Shown: positions 7,096 through 64,000, counted from the stretch's first letter. The stretch is 64,000 nt of DNA from Candidatus Omnitrophota bacterium (GCA_049643885.1 JBARQV010000020.1:10670-74669), one strand, 5' to 3'. Program-made: numbers and translations. The notes: generated from the sequence alone by a model not told the origin.

Positions 7096-10000
7096 ATGAA
7101 GTACTTATCTCAAAACGCCACAGAACGCCGAGACCCCATGGGCGGTAAAGAGATGCTGGCAAACAAGGCATTCAGGAGCCCGAAAGCCAGGCCATGGATG
7201 AAGACTATCTCGTGTGTCATCATCCTTACATTTCTCTTCCAACAGGTGGTCTTTGGCCAGGAAATAACCCCTGCGGCACCAGCCGAAAAACCCATTGTAG
7301 TTAACGGCCGTATCGATCTCAGGCAGGTCTCTCTTCCGCGTGATATCGCTATCACTAAAGAAGTGAGCATGGCCAAAAGCGAAGAGATTATCATCGATAT
7401 AAAGGACGCCCACGACAATTTCGGCGCCCAGGAGTCCATAGTCGCGGCGCTTGAAAACCTCCTTATAAATTACGACGTCAAGTTCATCGGGGTAGAAGGC
7501 TCTGAAGGGTTGATCGATATGGGCCTGATCTCTTCTTTTCCCGACGAGGATATCAAAAAAGAAACCGCCGAATACCTTATGCGCCAGGGTAAGATATCGG
7601 CCGGTGAATTCTTCGCGGCGACCTCAAAGACGCCCATAATGCTCTACGGTATAGAAGATACCGATCTTTACCTCAGGAATTACACTGATTTTATAGCCCT
7701 CCATGAAAAGATGAAAAGTAACCTCAAGTATGTGGACGGCCTGAGAAGGGCTCTGTACGCGCTTGAAGACCACGTGTTTTCGGAAGAACTCAAAACTCTT
7801 AACAGGAGCTCGATCCTCAGTAAAAACGGGAACAACAGGTTCACCAGGCGGTGGGAGTATATCGAGAACCTCGGCAAGAAATACGGCGTCAGCATAGAAG
7901 AGTATGAAAATATCAGGGCCTTGATACACACGATGGTGATAGAGGACTCGATAGATTACAAGGCCGTCAACGCGCAGAGGGAAAAGCTCCTGGACATACT
8001 GACCAAACGGCTCCCGAGGGACCAGCTCGAGGAGCTCATCCTCAAGAGCCTGAACTTCAAACTCGGCAAAATATCGAAGAGCCAGTTCTATACTCACCTC
8101 TTGTTCCTTGCTAAGGGGGAGGAACTTGACAGGGAAACCTATGACAGCATCGAGGTCTTCTGCGATTTTGTGAACACGTATGAGTCTATAGACATCGGCA
8201 CCCTCATGGACGAGATCGATGAATATGAATGCAAGATAAAGGATAAGCTTTTCACAGGCGAAGAGGACCGGGAGCTCACGCATCTTTTAAAGAACGTGGA
8301 GATACTCCATAATCTTTACCAGGTCCGGCTTACCAGCGGACAGTTGAAGTATTTCCGGGAGAACAAGGAAGATTTCAGCTCCGAGATATTCCTGGATTTT
8401 ATAAAGGATACGTACCAGAAATACGGCATGCGCGTCCCGGAAAACCTCCGCAGGAACACGTATAAACTCTTCGAGATGCTTCCCCAGGGTATAGACTTTT
8501 ACGAAGCCGCCACCAAAAGGAACCGCGCTATGGTCGACAACACCATAAAGCAGATGCGGGAAAATGGTGTTACGGTGGGAGCGATAGTGACCGGGGGGTT
8601 CCATACGAGGGGCATATCCGAGGTGCTTAAGTCCGATGAGGTCTCTTACCTGATACTCCTGCCCCGGTTCAACGCTCGGAACAACAAACGCCCCTACATA
8701 ACCGTCCTGACGAACAAAGCCGCTGAGTATAAGCATTATGTGGAATCGGGCAGATACCTTGCCGCGTCCTCTTACTTTTCGATGATGCAGGGTATTTTGG
8801 AAGGCTCCGGCCAGGAGGATACGGCCCGCAAGACAAGACTTGAAGCCCTGGCCGTCATGATAGGCCTGTACAGCCAGGGAAGGAGGGAGAGAGGCACGTT
8901 CAGCCAGAGGATACTGAACAATATGAAAGAAAGGCTCATGGATCAGTTCAAGGCGGGCCAGGAGCAGAAGCTGAAAGCGGGACAGATCACCCAGGGACAA
9001 TACGAAAGCCTGGTAAATGAGATGGAGACGCTCCTGGATAATACGTTCGTGACCTGGAAAGGAGAGGTTCCCCAGGTATTTATTAAGTCCACGGAAGGCA
9101 ATTTCATGTATGCCGTTGAAGCGGAGAAGGTGGAAGGAGAGACAAAACCCGTTGTTATGCTCGCCGCGTATGATGGCATTTCGGGTAAAAAGATCGAGAG
9201 CGTGAAACTGGAGAGCCAGATAATGGAGGCGGAGCTTGCCGCGGGAGAAGCAATAGACATGGGCAAGGAACTCTTAGCCAGAGTCCAGAAACTGAAGAAC
9301 GAGCAGTTTTTAAAGAGGTTTGGCATTGAGGCGAAAGCCCAGCTGGAAATAGAGATACTCAAAGGCAAGCTGGCCGATGCCGAAGACCTTCAAGAATGGC
9401 TCGAAACTAAGCTGACGAAAATGGCGAACGCCATGCGTGTCGATAAAGGACAGGTAGAGGCCGAAGCCCAGAAGATAATAAGTAGCCGTGTAGAAGAACT
9501 GACTGCCACCCTTGCCCGGGCAAGAGAAGGGGAAGTGTCCCCAGCCAAGCGTGTTGGCGAAGCGGTAGCGACAAGAAAAGCCGCTGATGATCTAGAGAAG
9601 GAAGTCAGGGCAAGCAAAGAATTTCAAGATCTCGTAGCTAAAGCAGAAGAGCAGAAACCCTCGGATATGATGGGGTCTATCAAAGTTGTAAAGCACGATT
9701 TCAAAGGTACTGGAGTCGCCGCGTTCAACTACCGTGAAGGGGAAAGGACTGGCATCCTCAAAGAAGGCAGGACATTAGTTGTAGCGCTCAACCAAAGCTA
9801 TATAGATGAAGCGGTTAAAATGCTCGAAGCGGCAGGGATAACGGAGATCACCGTGACCGTTGTCGAAAGGAGGCGGAAGAAAGAAGTCAAGATGTCCGTG
9901 AGGGAAGCGCTTGAACAGGAACTTATAGATCATGAGAAAAAAGAGGATCACTGGGTAGCAAAGCGTAAGGTCGGTGAAAGGCGGGGGCACATTCTGGCAA

Positions 10001-34000: not shown

Positions 34001-35367
34001 TAATGAGGCCCGCAGGGGTCCCCAGGATGAAGCCGGTCGTAGTCAGTGACAGTCTTGAGATCGCGGAAGAAAGGAAGATTGCCACGGTCGGAATATTGGA
34101 TGTTGCCGATGAGGCATTGGCGGGATTCGGAGAGAAATATCTGGATATCAAGTTCATGCGGGTAACCAGTATGGAAGACCTGGAAAATGCGGAGGGTCCG
34201 CAGGTCCGTGTCTTCCTGGATCTCAGGGAAGGAATACCCATACAGGAAGCTGTCAAGATAGTGAGAGTCCAGTCTTTTGCCTTGAGATATCCGGGCCTGG
34301 CAAGACTGAACGAAGGTAGTATAGAAAAGCTCAAGACGGCTGCTTTAAGCGGGGCGGCTGAGATAATTTCGCAGAACATACCGAATGAAGTAAGGGAAAG
34401 CATTGATGATCTCTTTAGTGCCGGTTATATGGCCGGGGTAGCGCCCGAGAGAGAGCCGGCGGACGCTGAGGGGTGGACAAAAGAGAGCATAGTCGCGTTT
34501 AATGAGTTTTTGGAAGCGAGAGCGCAGGCGATAAAGACCGGCAAACCTGTCGATAGGGGTCCGGTTGAGAAAGTCATGGGCTACTTTGCCGGTATGGTCG
34601 ATTTTATGCGAGGGAAGAGTGACGAGGTAAAAAGAGATATACTTGTAGAGCATGAGGGTGTCGCAAAGGCGCAGAATGTTGAAGCGGCGGTAATGGGGAT
34701 ATTCAGGGAATTCAGAAGAGGTGAACTCTTGCCCAAGACACCGCAGGCGATAGTTATTGACGCGAGAAACACGGAAGAATCAGGGTTTGACCTTAAAGCG
34801 ATGCGTCCCGCTCTTGAAGCCTTTGCCGCCGATAAGCTGATAAAGGTGTGCGTGATCACGCGAGACGCCGTCCCGCCTGCCGAGATAAGAGAGCTTGCCG
34901 CAAAAGGTATTGTTACGCATATTGTCGCCGGTGAAGATGTTGCAATGCAGGGAATAGTGCAGGAAGTCCAAAACCGTCATAAGGAAGTGGCGACCGCGGA
35001 TATTGCCGTAACCGCGGGAGAGTATCTAACGAAAGATATGACGGATTATATAGGTGAAAACCTGATGGAAAGTACCAGTTTCGTTGTAGTGGGCCGGGGA
35101 GTGGTTCCTGTTGATGCCGCAGGAAGGAGAATAAACCGCCTGATACCGTCGATGGCGGCAATGAACATCCTTAACAGGGCCAGGGATATAAATAAACGTC
35201 CCAGTGTTATGACGGTCGGCTGTTCGGAAGAGAACGAAACCGCGATATCCAACGTGCGGGAGGTGCTGGGCCGCATATTTGAACTCATAAAGATCAAGGC
35301 CATTGATATAAGCCGCGAGATCACATCGCGCATCGAAGCTCTCAGCGAAGTCGCGAGGGCACTGTAA
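7096..35367 (+). CDS. Giant multidomain membrane protein, 9423 aa. Contains signal/anchor, TraB/GumN/TIKI-like N-domain, charged coiled-coil/SAH tracts, SecA-like DEAD motor, multi-TM clusters and a TPR-rich C-terminal third
   Basis: Single uninterrupted ORF from ATG to TAA in the supplied table. Only short antisense ORFs on the other strand. Followed by an intrinsic terminator. Confidence 0.9.
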   Translation: MKYLSQNATERRDPMGGKEMLANKAFRSPKARPWMKTISCVIILTFLFQQVVFGQEITPAAPAEKPIVVNGRIDLRQVSLPRDIAITKEVSMAKSEEIIIDIKDAHDNFGAQESIVAALENLLINYDVKFIGVEGSEGLIDMGLISSFPDEDIKKETAEYLMRQGKISAGEFFAATSKTPIMLYGIEDTDLYLRNYTDFIALHEKMKSNLKYVDGLRRALYALEDHVFSEELKTLNRSSILSKNGNNRFTRRWEYIENLGKKYGVSIEEYENIRALIHTMVIEDSIDYKAVNAQREKLLDILTKRLPRDQLEELILKSLNFKLGKISKSQFYTHLLFLAKGEELDRETYDSIEVFCDFVNTYESIDIGTLMDEIDEYECKIKDKLFTGEEDRELTHLLKNVEILHNLYQVRLTSGQLKYFRENKEDFSSEIFLDFIKDTYQKYGMRVPENLRRNTYKLFEMLPQGIDFYEAATKRNRAMVDNTIKQMRENGVTVGAIVTGGFHTRGISEVLKSDEVSYLILLPRFNARNNKRPYITVLTNKAAEYKHYVESGRYLAASSYFSMMQGILEGSGQEDTARKTRLEALAVMIGLYSQGRRERGTFSQRILNNMKERLMDQFKAGQEQKLKAGQITQGQYESLVNEMETLLDNTFVTWKGEVPQVFIKSTEGNFMYAVEAEKVEGETKPVVMLAAYDGISGKKIESVKLESQIMEAELAAGEAIDMGKELLARVQKLKNEQFLKRFGIEAKAQLEIEILKGKLADAEDLQEWLETKLTKMANAMRVDKGQVEAEAQKIISSRVEELTATLARAREGEVSPAKRVGEAVATRKAADDLEKEVRASKEFQDLVAKAEEQKPSDMMGSIKVVKHDFKGTGVAAFNYREGERTGILKEGRTLVVALNQSYIDEAVKMLEAAGITEITVTVVERRRKKEVKMSVREALEQELIDHEKKEDHWVAKRKVGERRGHILASAETALTWRAKELGGLSLFHYIELKMMGFEQLEALAREDRTDQHKILKSAKMDQAIGYEENMQKAAREEAERKMSPEVKKKREDAAVLAKKDAVDKVRGVFVSIHTQVQAELSKVQGLIDSGKLDDAASLMKKIYSRLEDQIKAATGKVGKTSPEMLNEKAVQEALEMAELAPNALNRELLRSLMNRDAGAFLTALGNAQKGLDLDGRPIKTTADAERAMQEAKRRQEAAYGSWLAAGYEDLAFQYMRRAGDRYKDRVMIESLGREIKINTGFLLFDLIDAVNGYRQGKVNANVIMLLTQLYQVSLDANAEAKGTKAAKWADHLMSGLKNAQERAKDPKDPLLEQRKDKVRNLDIGSFMGEIGGIIKVARGEKAKAVEKAPAAPAAAAEIETTSSEFASNVMKAVQARLDAIVGKGKIAAKVREYIARNYVKVLGRRYKAISADRIVPAINILMRNEAEVIKMLEEAQTRVLEALHEEAVKFYDEKIAIHVSKAKTAADYLQEEGLYSQLRTKMQAAIEVRKKGAEAGVILRESGIIEKMDSLETDGIKMADDGITTAQKRRAKLAEAEAKKKVAPAAPVAAKAEADRRAAEAKAEADRKAAEAKAKAEADRRAVEAKAEADRQAAEAKAEADRKAAEAKAEADRKAAEAEAKAEADRRAAEAKAEADRKAAEAKAEADRRAAEAKTEAERRAEAEAEARREAEDAEARREAEDAEARREAEDAEARRDAAEAAARARAEDDEWVAAEQEIKDLKARIEETRADAKAAREKAEQLQADTGVAISPEMRDAARDAKARLDAVQKDLDEAEAAREEAAKEVDDLKEKADDLAKKAEEAEKAPATPAAVVGKAISPEVQKVLDEGGVERFIEKRLGIISRNETANAILMLEEFCNSLIEKGIDPASVFDAKQLSDFKANMANGIALFSQIATNKQMKATDFAKQLDALIIDKTSPIASSYYELFAKYINMAEPTSAGREARAGKVKEAFAMAMAGFIRSGLVNAIDAIEKGPAAEAAPAVSVADLKAELEKAKKELAAAEKKLTEQQGKKSEKEDARSQAAAAVAEAEAKLEKALAQAPAEEMPEQARELRKRAEGAEAQAGNLQEKLNAAMARVERMAQARADRAATYEGAREAARESASRDAKREAEREKRKEARATAEKRLEEKEEADREVENLSEEFKNAKQKLIEAEWTEMVAEKKAEDTEFKDALEQAAARAEKPKTDKEVKVAEAVNVFDEIESSQKEAEQAQREEKDAQERLDQWKNIASDVKARVEISEELQKDEAKRLEADSAREKMKEAQDRVASREAGIKSVEDAADLMEIDVKKQAEKVADADIKRLQGELAFADEELENSEEALKKVRQRLQSEDEIEKDAKGRLTSDAAAKVLRLEDALARKKAEINNKVALGLGEWGKLGLNTGDPKLNAERKAAKAKAEAARDALEEALEKALGKAREEVKKEYRKEIETLTEEIGSRKEEKISLAADIKGLQEGKKDGSIAEKALDKRDKDDPDGRTFREQIEMQRRQAELDRKDLEAEKNKLEEAEEAYYKVVDGIEVEVDEEIGRLSIRQANEKLAEAEESARLAREKREGLDKHLQEVTEKAAAAAVAAGLQIVGGRLVSQELIKVRRQYEIAQKIKARREGRVSELEKKLAEAEKASREAEAEIAKAEEAAPEERAPPEAKEAEAPPEAKEEAPPEVKEEAPAPEDATARARARIDKILAESTRAEAISLLIVLSRSDDAIEAKLAREALGNLLEGKDKLSGDVNNLLTTSEGREELLVIYNRLRGQTLDPEISAEELAKVQESIKIIEAILWSALLKTADPAVTEGAIDVSRRHIEAVSALLQSRIKRLGAELDDLLAMGDQKNPIDLLRQISEARRIEKELKACETAIKDINDRRISLMSDTQVQLRDEDGKFILEDVYKKIDEREIELKLAKDKLTRLKSRNSYFLMTIKWGSKETKKTLEDKKPLEAEGPDGRTYYVNASTGQADRYSQEIVDEASKLRDEVLGMREIAKAVVKKMAWWRWGSLVALVTGKKAKIRNELKDRLQEWALLLMELLPKEQADRFKDELKIIGEYNEKEKTFTIHEGFDFKNAVDIIDYLAKVSMVTVGMKTEERTEEGVTRKFYSFDDTAVSLGTVDKVSKEVGSVMHKLNQILNPEPVSDEVDKVSDEQKKKAQEKATKGFSDLLVRIDEAFGGRLDAAKKQNLVDAKKLIGEILEEVEKKVSRSGVIMTKTLQLIKLLDNVVYGNSIGKIKEFLEVQLGVDKIIEEKDIDDIMRGLGVDDKAEIDQCVKHVLEKVDNTKRRERLAEYIVKFMLTGHIKPEKMEFFNVSPAERQGLIDEISVGIELSEMIRERKEEIAEELKKRKQRFSDPNNKDNELVYEFVALYQMSALLMKGESPFIEQVLTGLFMADSFFVDMATGAGKTLSFPLANMLTRCNSDGGKHPEGLKSMHLVTHGYYTERDFRETHFIYKMMGYKVAYLTDEDRELEAAHKSLGDNDVVITSYSALSFLCLEAGKMDNPKSKDWFELLQKTRLTFDECDVAPRLADFITAAMQNKLSLKEYMKLHVLFKTAEKLHEKGGISAIYSLFEDNIVGVLDKQDRANLDKLRKMLGFEEEPDQVEINDKGNIVIEGKEYTKKQLKKAKQIAVQGSKFLVKHSDQKGFVFTRMEYTAPVDLDPRKVKKRMEDTGKTEEEVEEELRKEALGASGAKIDLVSRSAYGNESTKDMVAGIMRSITFGLTSTLGKEVIEDTPTWQEFLDVVKVLYVDEENVDYRLKYQEKDEVPAISVREVDGEAVVFKGEQIVEPAFNVERRADGSVRIGDETASYVISDQFFKQRKTDDERVIFLGGKRYRVSKGKKGGYELQEVAMEIVLLDEQTKREQGKQRKDTFHTLYEMKHHLKRDRPDTPEIRGDNKSSDQWNIANVVDKAHSLGGASGSVKDAARVMLGFFGKKCKPRIKKLPPPIAKKGAHRQGIFVPSDKRLWQVTLNRIKQIYTLSPGASMIIYFDDIGQAKEFEKELNKIVDNEEFEKLAGGKVNVNVFDDEGQKEIDLVEQAGKRNTITLADSKLGRATNVRLAEIVGFNPANSSKALREYLMRTLIDEPVSRGEVLSDEEKQKTLKTIDHYVKEFVGVLAGVYQEDGKDNVGLFYETDVASREVKRRKVEDFLRKIGVGEESEVWDIVRRKYIDGLFLIDLSPDGNLQAKEQKFGRNMRAGDTGYVDPIYSLQEESKFYTMVMKLYDKDYNQQWGPIRRWWNGRIFTEFQRNVERLKALEEKMYDENGHRRADVTENDLNEWVELQRYFSDLLLKVRVEWQRRADNAAIREVNNKRKMREELEKVSLMLPEFYKAVEVDPTVADDLVIKRLERLFDKYFDLERMDKESGVIDLKDLIGTIEQEFKLRLKLSEKRNQITLNPTNDQEARDELRWRRDMYMAIFLKAIGSLGSVRMSPREETVLQAGRDAFHLEIDEKGVLSLKSLVRNQPDGSKAEFKAEELPDGSVIIAGKEYDVVREPGSVKLVDPETEQIQWEFNIKAGINAAGRRFFAVTLAGAYLEAIKEVYKNGFEALKSKIIREFRTYGKIVKVDTSENGLADSAEEQALESYKDRVAGTATYDTEASLAVIDEAAEDIDKGLEEVGDRLAKERQKDEDQGDKRLENERGWVPLKQEASSRKAAKKVERKVRAPHEHEMGLEIPAQIVASRERNTDEDWHTSEVDLDEEFEEMEVEGERPSVAADDVSVAVVEKDLARKAGKDDTARKDREKESVAAHRRRIVDEGVIDVKHAEGAVVATNKGEVRPVSEAEVIQGADIIAGTTPAKPPEQVLSEGGVVVFTSEMAWNELGEAGQKELIGELRERFPGMYVTFEGCAPRGGALGTEEGRVNITGLRVFHPSAVKALEKEKASFEDEAFKKAKAGAERRGEAFTADEGGDVVSQEKLEGALGISPKKGEKISIRRVGDSFFLVADTKDGIVVRSLGGDVYGQTRLAIVRANEKLSAKDEESGKKGIQEGEYVLDKDGIYSRSTGVPGEYVVKFDNIITDNVPEKEVIERLPMPLKEAPGPAILTGGVIGIPRYLGTSILSLLRGLRDSIGDAWDWLIERHQLVQSRFVTSWRNVSGIGSGLIFGLWLLRRALGIPMDILKFIFHDTKRRFAVLGEWINARYNRAMSEMEQRWKREDPKYQLRVYRLEAVAKDKDASWASKALANVRLWWLGRRLGRWKGTGWHIALRAYQGALLAARAAQGVLWLGKKAVQLVTYGWFYWPWSALDKRLKARRARREVEPKPEEVVNIRLPDTLRTPGKPSEKAEEITDLAESLTGERLSGVEKTGLLDKLREYLEAEGEYRYALGFGDVGGIANILADMYFYEVNKKPEHKDSAARLGRTLFGLHEKEAKAAKEDEKNEIQKKKAERARILAQNYIALASALDKKDIDVKTLRAVTLYAAGDKEGAKKILDKIKLGNIPDRDVRRMAYATMAKMLEDEKDYNRAAGMIQKAKGLTEEDKVTVAGEEIELSVKKQGELKKQASEKKEEKVSLLNRVKRLLFPEAGASKKQKAIGFGIFVGLFLLAILAPQFLPLVYLGFTAPPVVTGIWSLVAISAPVFYNKLLVQLAMWVFKYAASRVRNWTTNNFTLGRMLAREISAQKRAPEKAEPRIKLVKAYEEAGEQKKAEKLIKKTMRMIRKDRMSPEEAAKFIEYLLEKGKVDEAKELFIRIYPRVPVDKVPVPLLILRAKMALRDEPLDPVKMAGEPEDPIEIAAASADGVLSREPENAEALLLKGEALAKRFEKEEKKDKKTPGEFNDILAKLTELTERGLLTPEQERRASEMEIAKAVKPEDSDRAVWKKAKETKVGEAVPEKPKMAEEPAKPETHKPAMEDLEKLKKEKKLSPSDRLALAVLYMENKDWRKALNLLRAMPQDAPEKAEALKRMAMCCYRMLEDPKWWYLTLITRLRMTSAINGLRSIKGQEEWADWIESTIKGFDISKAKAASEKISYTPKPEDKELTGEQGLNNELFTLGVERAIASKKDEIDTVNWVGGILSEAQIPEAEKGKMRANLDKKKSAAASKELLRDIQKEKKAKYVMVSDLRKLRNRKRRALSADEKMSLGRQIEETEKDISDKRARILKMYTELINQNAGRPEVIEQVRREMASEIGEIAGMMKKEEDFTPERFTSIILSLDDRVLVEDLSEGGRDAYALFLENWTEYMGQKLGMSYEKDKVPAELEVGKMDVFTQQVTMLLLMYPGADENLKRQIEKILKEISGFKLFGNWDKEEKEYTRKPIFDVIASMIRRKDIPSLRFLWAGLQIAEAGKISKDDLKENLKDRADAALLLNAPLTSLKSKVVDPKQDVREKAFNLLLSIVNFWFGDGADRAVDELLAEIISKETLTPDDISRIQRVLAQVRLMPVMYDNQRQFIEYLVGLKEVPLNKKLEAIDKCGLSPREKLEVLISLMEKEKFTGDDLYIALDNLKKRTGEVEPQDLKDLENSLTRLLEALPPDRDALVKGIEVINVISSKATKEIPIAHKGVFETLRPRLEKVMLEEMKKSEKAEVGLMLEEIERQEAIAARLGEMGEYGQAQKILEKAIERLNDVLKKNMELARKGEELYAKDQVLRLVDKVNVLTGKVTEFYRRQGKHYEAEILVVRGYRLLAEYGIIVEGLADVSEYTQKAEEALVNANMLNPYQPEVALEMMRIKALSLRVARRELEESEKSVKEDEEKKEEMDSQIAALDEEINKAKSDLDRKRRIRDAEFALREAQAIAGDERAEQNIRRQELEKEMEPIKVPEDKKRALERDRADVEARLDKARKKRDALKSREVHILTYENAPIEEGAEWAFTVLSRSGYDREKAEVKEAIGFLASLPAGYDGRILSGIGLMRTRAGALSGKDRHQRDAFIDNLILDIYFRGDKTKMLEAIDSIVKAAEEGKTEINIFGGDFNVNFVLGYIVNKMNQVIKEAPEEEKQKLQNELIIKLIDALKRIRRLDMPFLEADLFSKVYTQLEAEKDEDLKKADQWDMMLRSLQLLLQKKGLPGDIRTDNDLMELIIAMFDKLRKDKKEWDKLGERDKTVLVMDFNIERESAPGEIESIVEERKDTARLPMYRRLASSGDIEERKAGIMALAEMEMKKRDPDYDLVRDLAEELAELDSKETKAKWYLAFAYFRGGNRLTSDGKEVAGYSREKAKKLMDEYLKTPEPAEEARRLMGDIYKVEQNDRFGTNVNSEGNNPEAYKYYMGAVEHLVKRYREERAKGNDKKASMYLIEAIGNLDMAVTTNPRSGAVRVKRSRLLMDMGENDLASMDIETVTRIRDLKPEERLFGLIVTEEDFKEADLIQADLEGNNEKAIDILKPKGWFAFLRRVPARVAARLSERYGRLGEKKLADKYRKLALKAVEKRKEEIDTDILDTMAARREAEGTYESLTEAISLREMRKGRPGVNDETENKRIAGLKIKLARVEGPISFWKRIRSAARQKAAQEGRDERRKLLKEAREADAERAAEIDVAFMNINYEELDHLEDLQEQYENYAKKARFMKFISRKREDVMDKILELRADNTELVYAKFERNEVPIGDVEVFLENLEEYALIKGRSVPDKYKKVRANALVQRGNLAFKAGRYAEARDLYNEAIAEDPANSKAHFGKYQVSKTLSDNWTNLTFTEQAAEALKQALKLDPSLDGAELQYSGELIGIYLDQLGDAASADEVRQAMLARALKEEVEPSKTVISREKDKASALDAMVREQMEYDELNKRIKEKEKELEAITKGDKDKKGERPDYVRLEESIKIDKTVRDKKEASLESNRGAFERLAGDMKMFNQVIGNARGMPADEGIAYLEAFYYLLGINRLLEDRNIRDRIDLALAEAYNKKGGFGEAREKVDLLINTTDIQSIISSIVSDDIPVPEGSHLKLVIEALILRAGLSLKTDKPERFMSAVSDMNSAVQIIAIYNLIYGTKLSVGEAYARFNDILTEARKADVSIADNTDMKRNIFGIFMALARLGDDGNAASNVMQVALSRPGDRDSGSFIVAMLDDKGVSDMMKENMIKGLIDDTVKEEEKKAWVRSIERMQDVLGSLKESYNKGVKAAAMMVLGLIETSRRRARQLFKKATALQEELKEVIRRGRTAEFYRKRAEKAFRERKYKRAIANYEKAVSMDPALKKDAVLMLDLTRSYQGEAGRYKRARNRRRNLPKQMEMLQKALETAPDNEKAGIRSELIASLRESAGIRMNRYRSARPSRKRRAFPALRKQISELNYQIGSLHRENGETKEAEDAFRLASKYDPQNAKARTALAEMVKEKEEKAEAGMTGVELLVKSMQKRREGDHKKAIALLEEAVKRDKELEDTVKPDKEAIDSVDRGIDRILDHEIFKKLTGEMAKAEVEGKDDKYKEKLLDKWMNELSDASKKRVSARRAILDRHFMDKEGDRSDEEKRKRFFDIGMDLFREVGETEPSVPADRDSFFNRALVVAQELLEQGKLRKAYYLADFVMRRDPDAKRRGRAAFLKASSYIKSGDDKEGKNLEEAEKYYDEITDKKMRSEIALGIANMYAGRSGDPDLLKAEQAVLRGDAINYYRRAIEDDPSNIAALDAFMAFYGRDKADEIFADKNLERLKNALKTAVDMAFLSSVARAALSGAPSPEKLGTLRDILDRIRALLTEPDIEERPSDAAIIDFLRSLTNLLKDTKARVSDKEGIAEVDKIIDAMSDIRSSIEKDDVYRENTGINNVFTLLNAHLYMYSGRDGSAEIEKVTVQTDDDRAEVIFARLRGMLAPDKPDIQGAELALKRLTKADPEATPRARRQIAEALFIVATKTKDISDTDKAEYLERALQLWPEFKDAHREFAGLFAKTGNTEREAYHRGQVKAIGDRIIMPLAIEPSGIGKELLKHGVKAPLLERSLYFAVPLLAVFLAGGIATWGLGAFGFFLLPLGPVFNTGFALGAAVFIPSFVKAHKEGKPAAMAVSITSVALPLLFSLSPLVYIALAIAAHSAVNLIIFGINRYAGEKVLSYASAERIISRETGFPQEIMRPAGVPRMKPVVVSDSLEIAEERKIATVGILDVADEALAGFGEKYLDIKFMRVTSMEDLENAEGPQVRVFLDLREGIPIQEAVKIVRVQSFALRYPGLARLNEGSIEKLKTAALSGAAEIISQNIPNEVRESIDDLFSAGYMAGVAPEREPADAEGWTKESIVAFNEFLEARAQAIKTGKPVDRGPVEKVMGYFAGMVDFMRGKSDEVKRDILVEHEGVAKAQNVEAAVMGIFREFRRGELLPKTPQAIVIDARNTEESGFDLKAMRPALEAFAADKLIKVCVITRDAVPPAEIRELAAKGIVTHIVAGEDVAMQGIVQEVQNRHKEVATADIAVTAGEYLTKDMTDYIGENLMESTSFVVVGRGVVPVDAAGRRINRLIPSMAAMNILNRARDINKRPSVMTVGCSEENETAISNVREVLGRIFELIKIKAIDISREITSRIEALSEVARAL
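7201..7260 (+). other. N-terminal signal peptide or signal-anchor of gene 2 (KARPWMKTISCVIILTFLFQQVVFGQE) after a ~35-aa n-region
   Basis: Basic residues followed by an 18-aa hydrophobic core and a G-Q-E cleavage-like site. Confidence 0.6.
7300..8720 (+). other. TraB/GumN/TIKI-superfamily-like domain (putative metallohydrolase or pheromone-shutdown fold). Paralogous to the gene 3 N-domain
   Basis: N-motif IDIKDAHDNFGAQESIVAALENLLINYDVKFIGVEGSEG and C-motif VGAIVTGGFHTRGISEVLKSDEVSYLIL resemble TraB GTAH..S..V..I...PD.V.VEL and VGAGHL.G..GL...L...G motifs. Confidence 0.5.
11746..12200 (+). repeat. Perfect in-frame tandem repeats: about 10 x 33 bp (AKAEADRKAAE units) then 4 x 27 bp (EARREAEDA). 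Single-alpha-helix / ER-K-like charged spacer
   Basis: Units aaggcagaggcRgatagaMRagcYgcYgaagcY start at 11746, 11779, 11818, 11851, 11884, 11917, 11956, 11989, 12022; 27-bp units run 12091-12198. Confidence 0.9.
15001..15114 (+). repeat. Short 21-27-bp tandem repeats encoding (E)APPEAKE x4, a Pro-rich linker
   Basis: gcccctcctgaagccaaagaa repeated with small variants. Confidence 0.8.
17200..19720 (+). other. Divergent SecA-like DEAD motor ATPase (NBD1, inserted region, NBD2) embedded at about aa 3370-4210 of gene 2
   Basis: Motif I DMATGAGKTL (17255-17278; SecA has MKTGEGKTL). Motif Ia MHLVTHGYYTERDF (SecA VHVVTVNDYLARRD). Motif II LTFDECDV (17611-17628; SecA LVDEVDSIL). Motif III-like FGLTSTLGKE. 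Motif V VEQAGKRNTITLADSKLGRATNVRL (SecA [25 protein letters not shown]). Motif VI GLFLID...QKFGRNMRAGDTGYVDPIYSLQEE (19630-19662; SecA GLHIIGTERHE...[22 protein letters not shown]). Confidence 0.75.
22170..22420 (+). other. Weakly hydrophobic segment, possible 1-2 TM helices (VSGIGSGLIFGLWLLRRALGIP)
   Basis: Hydrophobic stretches judged by eye. Confidence 0.35.
23650..23860 (+). other. Cluster of 2-3 TM helices in gene 2 (AIGFGIFVGLFLLAILAPQFLPLVYLGF...VTGIWSLVAISAPVFY...LLVQLAMWVF)
   Basis: Consecutive hydrophobic segments of at least 18 aa each, separated by short loops. Confidence 0.6.
29700..32700 (+). other. TPR-rich helical-repeat region of gene 2 (e.g. NLAFKAGRYAEARDLYNEAIAEDPANSKAHF; AFRERKYKRAIANYEKAVSMDP; AYYLADFVMRRDPD). 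A further TPR-like stretch lies at about 23000-23500
   Basis: Recurrent 34-aa W-LG-Y / A-F-A-P patterns read from the translation. Confidence 0.6.
33620..33920 (+). other. Cluster of about 4 TM helices near the gene 2 C-terminus (FAVPLLAVFLAGGIATWGLGAFGFFLLPLGPVF...LGAAVFIPSFV...AVSITSVALPLLFSLSPLVYIALAIAAHSAVNLIIFGI)
   Basis: Four hydrophobic segments of at least 18 aa separated by short loops. Confidence 0.65.
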
Positions 35368-35428
35368 TATGTAGTAACACGTCAGCTAACCAAATGCCTA
35401 CCAGCTACAGAGGCAGCTGACGAAAGAA

Positions 35429-35466
35429 GCGGGGAGGGCCGTGTAAGCCCTCCCCGTTTTTTTTAT
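35429..35466 (+). terminator. Rho-independent terminator of giant gene 2: gcggggagggc-cgtgtaa-gccctccccg then T9
   Basis: 11-bp GC-rich perfect stem, 7-nt loop and a 9-nt T-run, 62 nt after the TAA. A second 7-bp hairpin (gtcagct...agctgac) lies just upstream. Confidence 0.75.
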
Positions 35467-35544
35467 ATATAATAGACGTATTAAAGGAATATACACCCTA
35501 TAAGTGGGAAAGCAGTAGTTTGAAGCTAGAAAAGTAGCGGAGTA

Positions 35545-35970
35545 GCTAGGAATTAGAAGATAGAAATTAGTTGGGTCTGAAGCGCACTATAAGGGCCGTT
35601 AGCATCTTAGATAGGGCAAGAAATTGGGCATACAGATTTTCGAACTCGCTTTTACTGATCACGTTGGCTCTGTATAGAACAGTGATTATAGGGATACACT
35701 CGGAAACAGAGCCTTGAGATACTACGAAAGACTGCTTCTTTTCCCGGTTGCTTCTACGACCACTTCCCTCGGCTATATTGCAGGAAATGGACAAAGTCGC
35801 CCGTACAAGGTTATTCCCTATAGATCTTTGTAAATTGTAGGACATCTTGCTGAATATTGGGTATATTGATGAAGCGACATCTAAAGATACCTGGTACACG
35901 GTTAATCCCTCAAAGGCAAATTTCTTCATTGGGCGTCCTCCATACTAATTTCTATCTTCTAATTTCTAGC
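35545..35970. mobile_element. Compact 426-bp cassette bounded by 26-bp inverted repeats (25/26 match) that encodes only a four-helix-bundle protein. IVS-like or miniature insertion element
   Basis: Left arm gctaggaattagaagatagaaattag (35545-35570). Right arm ctaatttctatcttctaatttctagc (35945-35970) is its reverse complement with 1 mismatch. The arms overlap the stop codon and lie 16 bp upstream of the ATG of the enclosed minus-strand gene. Confidence 0.5.
35567..35929 (-). CDS. Four-helix-bundle protein of the TIGR02436 / 23S rRNA intervening-sequence protein family, 120 aa
   Basis: Signature NIAEGSGRRS...QGSVSECIPIITVL...LYAQFLALSKMLTALI matches the family pattern NIAEGxGR...GSxxE. Clean ORF between the inverted repeats. 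Confidence 0.8.
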   Translation of the reverse strand: MKKFAFEGLTVYQVSLDVASSIYPIFSKMSYNLQRSIGNNLVRATLSISCNIAEGSGRRSNREKKQSFVVSQGSVSECIPIITVLYRANVISKSEFENLYAQFLALSKMLTALIVRFRPN

Positions 35971-36068
35971 TTCTCCCTACACTTATAGACAACTCCTTCC
36001 CCTAAATTCTTGTAACTGGACGATTTAAGCCACTTTGTTTAGTTATAAAATAGTTAGTTATAACCATA

Positions 36069-36098
36069 TTGACAAACACTGGTGGGGTGTGGTATGAT
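36069..36098 (+). promoter_or_regulatory. Near-consensus sigma70-type promoter P1: TTGACA, 18-nt spacer, extended -10 TGgTATGAT
   Basis: ttgaca 36069-36074; tg 36090-36091; tatgat 36093-36098. An AT-rich direct repeat (tagttataa x2) sits immediately upstream like an UP element. Confidence 0.5.
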
Positions 36099-36245
36099 GG
36101 TCAGAACGTTAAGGAAGCAGAAAGAAAGCGTCCGTATAATAACAAAAAGTATGCAGTTGTTTTACGAAGGAAAATGCAAGAAATTAGGATTTCAAAAGCT
36201 AGGATATACCTGATGTTAAGGTATAAAATAGGTAGAATGATATCA

Positions 36246-36274
36246 TTGACTTGGGTATGAAAATGTGGTATCAT
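36246..36274 (+). promoter_or_regulatory. Second promoter P2: TTGACT, 17-nt spacer, extended -10 TGgTATCAT. It shares the tgtggtat core with P1
   Basis: ttgact 36246-36251; tg 36266-36267; tatcat 36269-36274. About 160 bp upstream of the gene 3 ATG. Confidence 0.45.
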
Positions 36275-36434
36275 TATATAGTAATTAGACGATAAAAAAG
36301 GCAGTTAGGGTTATTTATCGTCGGGAAAAACGACTTGGCAAAGAAGACTTGGCAGCAGCTTGGTAAATGACTTGGCAGACTTGGCGAAAAAGACTTGGCG
36401 AACAAAAACTTGGCAAAGAGGCTTGGCGAAAAAT

Positions 36435-64000
<27,566 letters not shown>

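Follow-up and report, generated by a model that had tools for sequence, protein, structure and literature searches.

Genomic setting

The window, i.e., the whole stretch of 64,000 nucleotides that was analysed, belongs to an 87.5-kb metagenomic scaffold from a Candidatus Omnitrophota bacterium. Its ORFs are three co-directional giant genes (>2302, 9423 and 12789 aa, the last length being that of the source record) and one ORF of 120 aa, and nothing else. The small ORF lies in the 1283-bp spacer between the end of gene 2 (35367) and the start of gene 3 (36651), within a cassette that is antisense to both neighbours. Neither rRNA, tRNA nor any other Rfam family was found at the gathering score in the whole window, and at E<=10 nothing relevant turned up in 35000-36600. 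The features of the spacer, in window positions, are as follows:

35423-35466, GC-rich hairpin, the gene 2 terminator, followed by T8 on the plus strand; terminator-like on the minus strand too, about 80 nt past the 3' arm of the cassette
35498-35506, left half of the outer stem (CTATAAGTG), partner 35980-35988; the outermost boundary detectable, paired in the minimum free energy (MFE) folds of both strands
35507-35538, minus strand, one-sided extension of the pyrimidine-rich 3' arm, with extra heptamer-like units that have no partner (CTTTTCT, AGCTTCA and AACTACT among them, minus strand)
35539-35571, left arm of the inverted repeat, i.e., the 3' arm of the ORF, covering its last two codons and TAA stop
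[quoted passage not shown]
35937-35941, minus strand, Shine-Dalgarno (SD) sequence GGAGG, 7 nt 5' of the ATG, within the loop and 2 nt away from the 5' arm of the stem
35944-35976, right arm of the inverted repeat, i.e., the 5' arm of the ORF, with the minus-strand heptamers AGCTAGA, AATTAGA, AGATAGA and AATTAGT; a 14-nt tandem repeat (D2) lies inside
35977-35988, CTAC extension and right half of the outer stem (CACTTATAG, 35980-35988), from reading of the sequence and MFE folds
36047-36075, minus strand, weak candidate promoter of the cassette gene, TTGTCA-17-TATTTT, 9/12 by consensus match alone, back-to-back with the -35 box of P1
36069-36098, plus strand, P1, promoter of gene 3, TTGACA-18-TATGAT, 11/12

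An earlier note on this DNA, made from the sequence alone, had placed the cassette between the gene 2 terminator and P1 of gene 3, and this location was borne out by the hairpin at 35423-35466 with its T8 and by P1 at 36069-36098. The hairpin was scored as terminator-like on the minus strand as well and could therefore serve the cassette transcript, too. The usual arrangement, in which a cassette is transcribed along with a host operon, is inapplicable here, as the cassette is antisense to both neighbours. Homologues of the N-terminus of gene 3 were all from Candidatus Omnitrophota, and the small protein likewise had its nearest genomic relative in an Omnitrophota MAG. Six other independent assemblies contained the cassette at 100% identity across 2.4 kb, and it is therefore not an assembly artefact.

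The four-helix-bundle gene

The product of the small ORF matched both PF05635 (E 5e-21, 75.3 bits; cut-off 33.8) and TIGR02436 (E 9.5e-21, 74.1 bits; cut-off 24). Its AlphaFold2 model, a single chain of four long helices with a pLDDT of 95.7, was superposed by Foldseek on Xcc0516 (2GSC; TM 0.92, rmsd 1.2 Å), 2RLD (TM 0.80) and bAvd (4DWL; TM 0.76), and Xcc0516 was the sole relative in a PDB sequence search (E 1.8e-5). A single 120-aa four-helix-bundle gene on the minus strand between the arms, as had been proposed, is thus upheld by profile matches at E ~1e-20 and by the TM of 0.92 to Xcc0516. The family motif was published as GxxRxxxSxxxNxxE (PMC3936711); its core, RxxxSxxxNxxE, is present in the protein as R43, S47, N51 and E54, and the leading G is found at -5, not -3. 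Residues S47, N51, I52, A53, E54 and G55 were invariant in a 17-sequence alignment. The protein had no match in PADLOC or PHROGs, and readings as a defence system or a phage gene were rejected on these grounds. Its ORF has a GC content of 42% (GC3 48%) vs 49-54% (GC3 54-60%) in the giant genes.

The inverted repeat

The repeat scan delimited two arms of 33 nt each (35539-35571 and 35944-35976), which are 372 nt apart and complementary at 31/33 positions (94%). The inverted repeat of 26 bp with one mismatch described before at 35545-35970 is real and constitutes the inner core of these larger arms. The geometry given for it needed some correction: the 3' arm does cover the TAA stop (35567-35569), and the 5' arm ends 14 nt, not 16 nt, before the ATG. 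Beyond the arms and a bulge of one nucleotide (C 35538), GTAG (35534-35537) is paired with CTAC (35977-35980), and the outer stem of 9 bp (35498-35506 with 35980-35988) follows past a 27-nt insertion on the left side. Measured from arm to arm the element is 438 nt long, and with bulge and outer stem it extends over 491 bp (35498-35988). The 5' arm also has an alternative partner of 18 nt, at 83% (35515-35532 with 35963-35980; repeat scan).

The terminal stem was present in the MFE folds of both strands (z ~ -3.8), and 0/100 shuffles were as stable. The arms have a GC content of 30-33% and are internally repetitive. When the 64 kb were searched for the arm sequence at 3 mismatches, the two arms themselves were the only copies, with 0 expected from 100 dinucleotide shuffles; the pair is the sole genuine long inverted repeat of the whole window, the other one being a 74% pair at chance level. 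The copy number of the arms, by which the earlier note had proposed to judge the element, gave no copies beyond the pair in the window or in the fetched loci; the arms were single-copy in both, with one scaffold of the genome searched.

Probable accessory status at the locus

No four-helix-bundle ORF was present at seven Omnitrophota loci (six distinct places) with homologues of the gene 3 N-terminus. At one of them, L174, tandem giant genes stand just 441 bp apart, with hairpin terminators and AT-rich promoter-like DNA between them. Gene 2 has no homology to the giant gene upstream in L174, and these loci are therefore analogous, not orthologous, empty sites. The C-terminal 450 aa of gene 2 gave zero matches as a protein query, and none of 166 fetched loci was hit by tblastn with the three giant genes. 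A strict empty site or a polymorphism of occupancy was not found, all seven assemblies being identical, and reading of the sequence outside the 33-bp arms and outside the outer stem gave no target-site duplication. The absence of the cassette from the seven gene 3-homologue loci, together with the lower GC content of its ORF, suggests that it is accessory to the giant-gene locus, short of proof of insertion.

Inverted repeats around related genes

Relatives with 29-53% identity were surveyed at 79 loci of species-representative genomes and 80 metagenomic loci, located with a 9-sequence family alignment, plus individual homologue contexts. Inverted repeats were scored by a gapped local comparison between the two 130-nt flanks of the ORF, upstream of the ATG and downstream of the stop, and 717 mock genes at 700-1500 nt distance in the same loci served as controls. 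The score exceeded the 99th percentile of the controls in 66 of the 145 evaluable loci vs 8 of the 717 controls, and the 95th percentile in 84 of the 145. The window cassette had the second strongest score of the survey. Each of the closest homologues (L008, L094, L015 and L017; 50-53% identity) possessed its own heptamer inverted repeat, at or above the 99th percentile of the controls. Related ORFs standing without inverted repeats had been named beforehand as evidence against a mobile or IVS-derived element, and all four of these closest ones turned out to be flanked by them.

None of 157 related loci was situated in rRNA. Since all of them lie outside rRNA, the non-rRNA location is the norm for the subfamily of the window protein; the rarity of such cassettes outside rRNA, which the earlier note had implied, was contradicted by this count and by the bounding inverted repeats at about half of the loci.

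The arm sequences differed in almost every locus (e.g., TGGTTCC x5, GAGCACA x8, TTCGTNN, AGCATGG, GTTACTT and GTGTAAG), while their position was conserved, the 5' arm ending at a median of 28 nt before the ATG and the 3' arm starting at a median of 11 nt past the stop. Median values were 30 nt for the arm, 462 bp for the span and 118 aa for the ORF. Conserved position with variable sequence is, for a stem, the equivalent of covariation, and on this comparison of sequences it shows that the arms are part of the inherited and selected unit. Autocorrelation of the arms was 0.55 at lag 7 vs ~0.25-0.35 at other lags, with 7 scoring highest in 33 of 54 arms. In prokaryotes, no class of slippage-prone repeats is commoner than that of heptanucleotides (PMC4679880), and the periodicity of 7 nt may reflect mutation instead of function.

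Mismatches between the arms, read on the sense strand of 63 loci, comprised 53 G·U vs 49 C·A, and the energies of sense and antisense duplexes were equal, with no bias. As G·U was not above C·A and the energies were the same, there was no sign that the stem is selected specifically in the RNA of the ORF. The G-rich arm came first in 52 of the 63 loci; this polarity was considered as an indicator of the strand and dropped, as an inverted repeat reads X...rc(X) on both strands.

Genomic contexts and probable mobility of related cassettes

A tRNA or tmRNA on the same strand ended within 700 nt upstream of the ORF in 63 of the 152 unique loci (~41%), at a median distance of 125 nt, and a tRNA on the opposite strand occurred in that zone at one locus only. 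Several cassettes were sandwiched between two tRNAs. Strong inverted repeats were commoner at loci without tRNA (39/69) than at tRNA-linked ones (18/63; Fisher p 0.0015). Among the 48 loci with an inverted repeat and no tRNA, the cassette was co-oriented with both neighbours in 31, and that of the window was the only one antisense to both. According to published work, ORFs of PF05635 are scattered across many insertion sites in the 16S and 23S genes of CPR bacteria and also occur within cas operons.

Two loci, L114 and L116, are syntenic pseudopilin operons (amino acid identity 68% for gene A and 43% for gene B; nucleotide identity of the host genes 74-81%) that differ in their occupancy. L116 has a full cassette at the A|B junction, and L114 has a 90%-identical cassette at B|C, together with a 131-nt remnant at A|B that has different heptamer arms and retains only the first 15 codons of the four-helix-bundle ORF. 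Both full copies begin right after a stop codon and end just 5' of the next SD, and no target-site duplication was seen at these junctions. This pair, with its change of junction and its decayed remnant, supports mobility of the class, and taken together the contexts, the pair and the published occurrences support gain, loss and replacement of cassettes at the DNA level.

Interpretation of the element

Based on the results of this study, the element in the window is probably a non-ribosomal four-helix-bundle cassette of the type of the rRNA intervening sequences (IVSs), presumably selfish and horizontally mobile, the arms of which would form a stem of the RNase III type. The parts of such a cassette stand in a fixed order, with a G/purine-rich array of about five tandem heptamers (5' arm) followed by the SD, the PF05635 gene of ~120 aa and the complementary pyrimidine-rich heptamers of the 3' arm, which overlap the stop codon. 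In a transcript that crosses it in either direction, the arms would form a duplex around the ORF, 33 bp long or longer, and RNase III would cut this duplex, by analogy with the 23S rRNA IVSs; the length of the stem (>=22 bp) appears compatible with this enzyme. The cut would free the cassette RNA from the host transcript, whereby the damage to the host would be limited. Because the window copy lies between the gene 2 terminator and the gene 3 promoter in antisense, it would depend on a weak divergent promoter of its own and on the hairpin terminator that it shares. By inference, the window cassette would be cleaved by RNase III, its ORF may be expressed and this copy may itself be mobile.

That the cassette is a small mobile or IVS-derived element had been suggested before. 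The suggestion was sustained by the IVS architecture and, indirectly, by the varying positions of the cassettes of relatives, and it found no counterpart here in a strict empty site. An influence of the cassette on read-through or on the expression of gene 3, which the earlier note had considered, would be speculative and found no support in the analyses. The practical consequence for the host genome is small; the cassette is outside both giant-gene transcription units.

The result of the survey is of more interest than the single copy in the window. Together with this locus, it shows that the complete IVS module, i.e., heptamer arms with an ORF, is not specific to rRNA and is also found at operon junctions, on the 3' sides of tRNA and tmRNA genes and in a giant-gene spacer, and the IVS could thereby be recast as a general cassette at one of its landing sites. 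The searchable literature covers rRNA IVSs, the homology with Avd and PF05635 in cas loci, and does not cover non-rRNA cassettes bounded by inverted repeats, heptamer arms or the linkage with tRNA and tmRNA. Occupied and empty sites, as well as cassettes and their remnants, offer natural comparisons for how the cassettes move and for the role of the Avd-like protein. For annotation, genes labelled as four helix bundle protein with flanking heptamer arrays would better be regarded as probable selfish insertions than as operon members.

Alternative explanations

The ORF could instead be a resident, non-mobile gene of the host, the complementary ends of which serve as a private post-transcriptional device (stabilising the mRNA, or occluding the SD that lies 2 nt from the stem), with the likeness to IVSs reflecting shared gene ancestry. 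An intact ORF with a strong SD, a confidently predicted fold and all family-invariant residues would be in agreement with this, and so would the plausible promoter and terminator of its own, the identity in seven assemblies, the arms with no further copy known and the lack of a visible target-site duplication. However, a resident gene does not readily account for homologous cassettes that occupy different junctions of syntenic operons and decay in place, nor for cassettes in rRNA, tRNA, tmRNA, cas and pilin contexts of many phyla. The cassette is also absent at the other Omnitrophota giant-gene loci, and the sense strand has no G·U bias, unlike what would be expected if the stem served its own mRNA only. 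We therefore consider a resident gene rather unlikely.

Another explanation is a non-autonomous transposon of the MITE type with terminal inverted repeats (TIRs), in which the four-helix-bundle gene is a passenger and a transposase encoded elsewhere binds the arms. Terminal repeats of 33 bp would fit such an element, as would arm mismatches that are symmetric and strand-neutral, and relatives that vary in position and include an internally deleted remnant. On the other hand, the arms of different cassettes share periodicity alone and no conserved terminal motif, which is unexpected for the sites of a transposase family. There is no target-site duplication here or at L114/L116 and no transposase in the window, and the characterised members of the IVS group are processed as RNA. 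The chance that the cassette is a transposon of this kind seems slim.

A third explanation, that the gene is an orphan avd gene of a diversity-generating retroelement (DGR) which diversifies a giant gene, is very improbable. PF05635 is the Pfam family that matches the Avd proteins of DGRs (PMC10053308), and the model of the window protein superposes on bAvd with a TM of 0.76; both points would speak for it. However, the window has neither a reverse transcriptase (RT) ORF nor a pair of template and variable repeats (TR/VR), its repeats being in-frame tandem coding repeats only, and the reading was rejected for these reasons. The protein is moreover without a PHROGs or PADLOC match, and in sequence and structure it is far nearer to the non-DGR group of Xcc0516 and BT_0352.

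Finally, the AT-rich arms (30-33% GC) with repeats inside them (D2) could be a chance or low-complexity coincidence beside an ordinary small gene, a reading with next to no probability that is refuted by the shuffles (0 matches expected) and the mock-gene controls, the arms forming the sole long inverted repeat within 64 kb and the architecture recurring in about half of the 145 homologous loci vs ~1% of the controls.

A possible ribonucleoprotein element

Returning to the element as a non-ribosomal IVS-type cassette, a more far-reaching and quite speculative extension, to which we would give little credence at present, is that the heptamer-armed PF05635 cassettes constitute one widespread class of mobile elements of the ribonucleoprotein (RNP) type. 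The Avd-like pentamer would bind about 4-5 of its own heptamers, one per subunit, for spread or maintenance, and the cassette could move through excision as RNA followed by reintegration, or with the help of a recruited host polymerase or RT. If true, this would explain why each cassette has a private heptamer and why the G-rich arm comes first (52/63), as well as the hitch-hiking on operon junctions and on the stable-RNA operons with the heaviest transcription (23S and 16S rRNA, tRNA and tmRNA). In that case, the window copy would be an active member that landed between giant genes.

Comparison with known systems

The cassette resembles MITEs and other TIR elements in being short, in its terminal inverted repeats and in having relatives with variable occupancy and deleted derivatives. 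It differs from them in its conserved and apparently functional non-transposase ORF, in the variable tandem-heptamer arms and in the lack of a target-site duplication.

In the DGR of Bordetella phage, bAvd is a pentameric scaffold that binds nucleic acid and the RT. It has the same fold as the window protein (4DWL and 8UBE; TM 0.76) and belongs to the same Pfam superfamily, but the identity is 10-12% only, and the window cassette is without RT, TR/VR or a match to a phage family. Xcc0516 and BT_0352 are stand-alone pentamers of four-helix bundles in the 'S23 ribosomal protein family'. They are the top structural matches (2GSC, TM 0.92; 2RLD, TM 0.80) and, like the gene studied here, are chromosomal genes outside rRNA.

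An integron cassette has one attC, located 3' of its ORF, and stands in an array linked to intI. The reading of the window element as an integron cassette was set aside, since its pair of arms flanks the ORF, unlike the single attC. The short tandem repeat arrays (STRR) of cyanobacteria consist of heptanucleotides in intergenic positions. In the Beggiatoaceae, TAACTGA repeats likewise form intergenic heptanucleotide arrays (PMC4679880). Both are similar to the cassettes in that tandem 7-nt units stand in intergenic DNA directly 5' of start codons. They occur, however, genome-wide, with one fixed heptamer in mostly direct orientation, whereas each cassette has a private heptamer, in an inverted pair, around one gene family.

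The closest parallel is found in the 23S rRNA IVSs, which have been known since 1990. They are inserted at helix 25 or 45 and are excised by RNase III without religation, and ORF-containing ones also occur in Leptospira, Brucella and the Xanthomonas type. As in these, complementary termini of the window element form a long stem around the insert (33 bp, 31/33 paired). Insertion in a 23S gene does not apply, as there is no rRNA in the window and both flanks are protein-coding giant genes.

The comparison was made in particular with the published description of the IVS of Coxiella burnetii, none of the 160 fetched loci being in rRNA. That IVS is 428-444 nt long, with a terminal stem of 28 bp that has one mismatch and one bulge, and contains an S23p/PF05635 ORF, the ATG of which is preceded by an AG-rich SD and then GACAGAT x3 (PMC4990558). 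RNase III cuts it out within the stem, and it is regarded as selfish and horizontally transferred (PMC4990558). The window cassette differs in its location outside rRNA, between giant protein genes and antisense to them, and in its SD, which is inside the loop here and in the cleaved-off part of the stem in Coxiella. In other respects the two are alike: each has a PF05635 ORF in an element of similar size (438-491 nt here, 428-444 nt there), enclosed by a stem (33 bp with two mismatches and a bulge here, 28 bp with one mismatch and a bulge there), and in each an AG-rich SD and tandem heptamers mark the region of the 5' arm, the ORF following the heptamers. The likeness to IVSs that the earlier note had recognised therefore holds in protein family, size, long stem with mismatch and bulge, and heptamer 5' region, and the window element has the same architecture as an ORF-bearing 23S IVS.

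Linkage to stable RNA genes

Among the 152 unique PF05635 genes of the survey loci (L015-L173), 63 had a tRNA or tmRNA gene upstream on the same strand, at a median distance of 125 nt, and only one had an opposite-strand tRNA in that position. Several were flanked by tRNA genes on both sides. Loci showing the linkage are as follows:

Linked to stable RNA, examples: L021, L044, L045, L052, L060, L061, L166
Linked to tmRNA: L036, L038, L062, L068, L074, L085

A position so shortly 3' of same-strand tRNA or tmRNA genes suggests that PF05635 genes are co-transcribed with stable-RNA operons, and this may be the commonest lifestyle of the subfamily to which the window protein belongs. No description of the tRNA/tmRNA linkage of PF05635 genes was found in the searchable literature.

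The cassette and its surroundings in the window

In the window, the cassette gene is preceded on the minus strand by a 5-codon upstream ORF (35926-35943; ATG GAG GAC GCC CAA TGA), which covers the SD and whose terminal ATGA falls on the main start codon. On the other side of the cassette from the giant gene 2 lies the giant gene 3, with a leader of about 545 nt (within 36069-36650) 3' of the strong promoter P1. The leader had no match in Rfam; the following features were recorded in it or its surroundings:

36036-36057 and 36214-36235: direct repeats TGTTTAGTTATAAAATAGTTAG / TGTTAAGGTATAAAATAGGTAG
36039-36063: direct repeat TTAGTTATAA, two copies
36082/36094-36213: small ORF of 39-43 aa, which the source record annotates as a gene
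36246-36274: second promoter-like site

The giant genes 2 and 3 each begin with a copy of one paralogous domain (7378-7443 and 36759-36824; …DAH…GVEGSEG…), homologues of which are widespread in Candidatus Omnitrophota as the N-termini of giant or fragmentary proteins. Five Logan contigs (L002-L006) end at one common point within this domain, near 36833. When the C-terminal 450 aa of gene 2 (34015-35364) served as query in a word-indexed protein search, no match was returned, and since the collection should contain the gene 2 protein itself, this outcome is probably an artefact of the candidate limit caused by low-complexity words.

Arms, flanking architectures and genomic position

The 5' arm was G-rich and C-poor in 52 of the 63 loci with inverted repeats (p 2e-7), a set that includes the window arm at 35944-35976. 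The cassette thus almost always runs from a G-rich to a C-rich array, and this order is true of both strands because the inverted repeat is symmetric. A second flanking architecture of the family is found in four tRNA/tmRNA-linked loci of Bacteroidota (L093, L034, L038 and L020), where the gene lies between two direct copies of a self-complementary hairpin of about 48 nt instead of a simple pair of heptamer arms. The Planctomycetia homologue L016:3001-3426, with a masked N run and an extra insertion of about 22 residues inside the four-helix-bundle ORF, was left out of alignments.

Cassettes can also cluster, as two same-strand PF05635 ORFs occurred within 6 kb in ten loci (including L064, L048, L051, L067, L049, L155 and L169). 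In two syntenic pseudopilin operons, cassettes with 90% identity occupied differing intergenic junctions (L114:1208-1662 versus L116:1841-2294). The 3' arm of the L116 cassette is read through by the frame of the next gene. At the junction where L116 carries its cassette, L114 has a decayed one of 131 nt (L114:532-662), in which the heptamer arms differ and 15 codons of the ORF remain.
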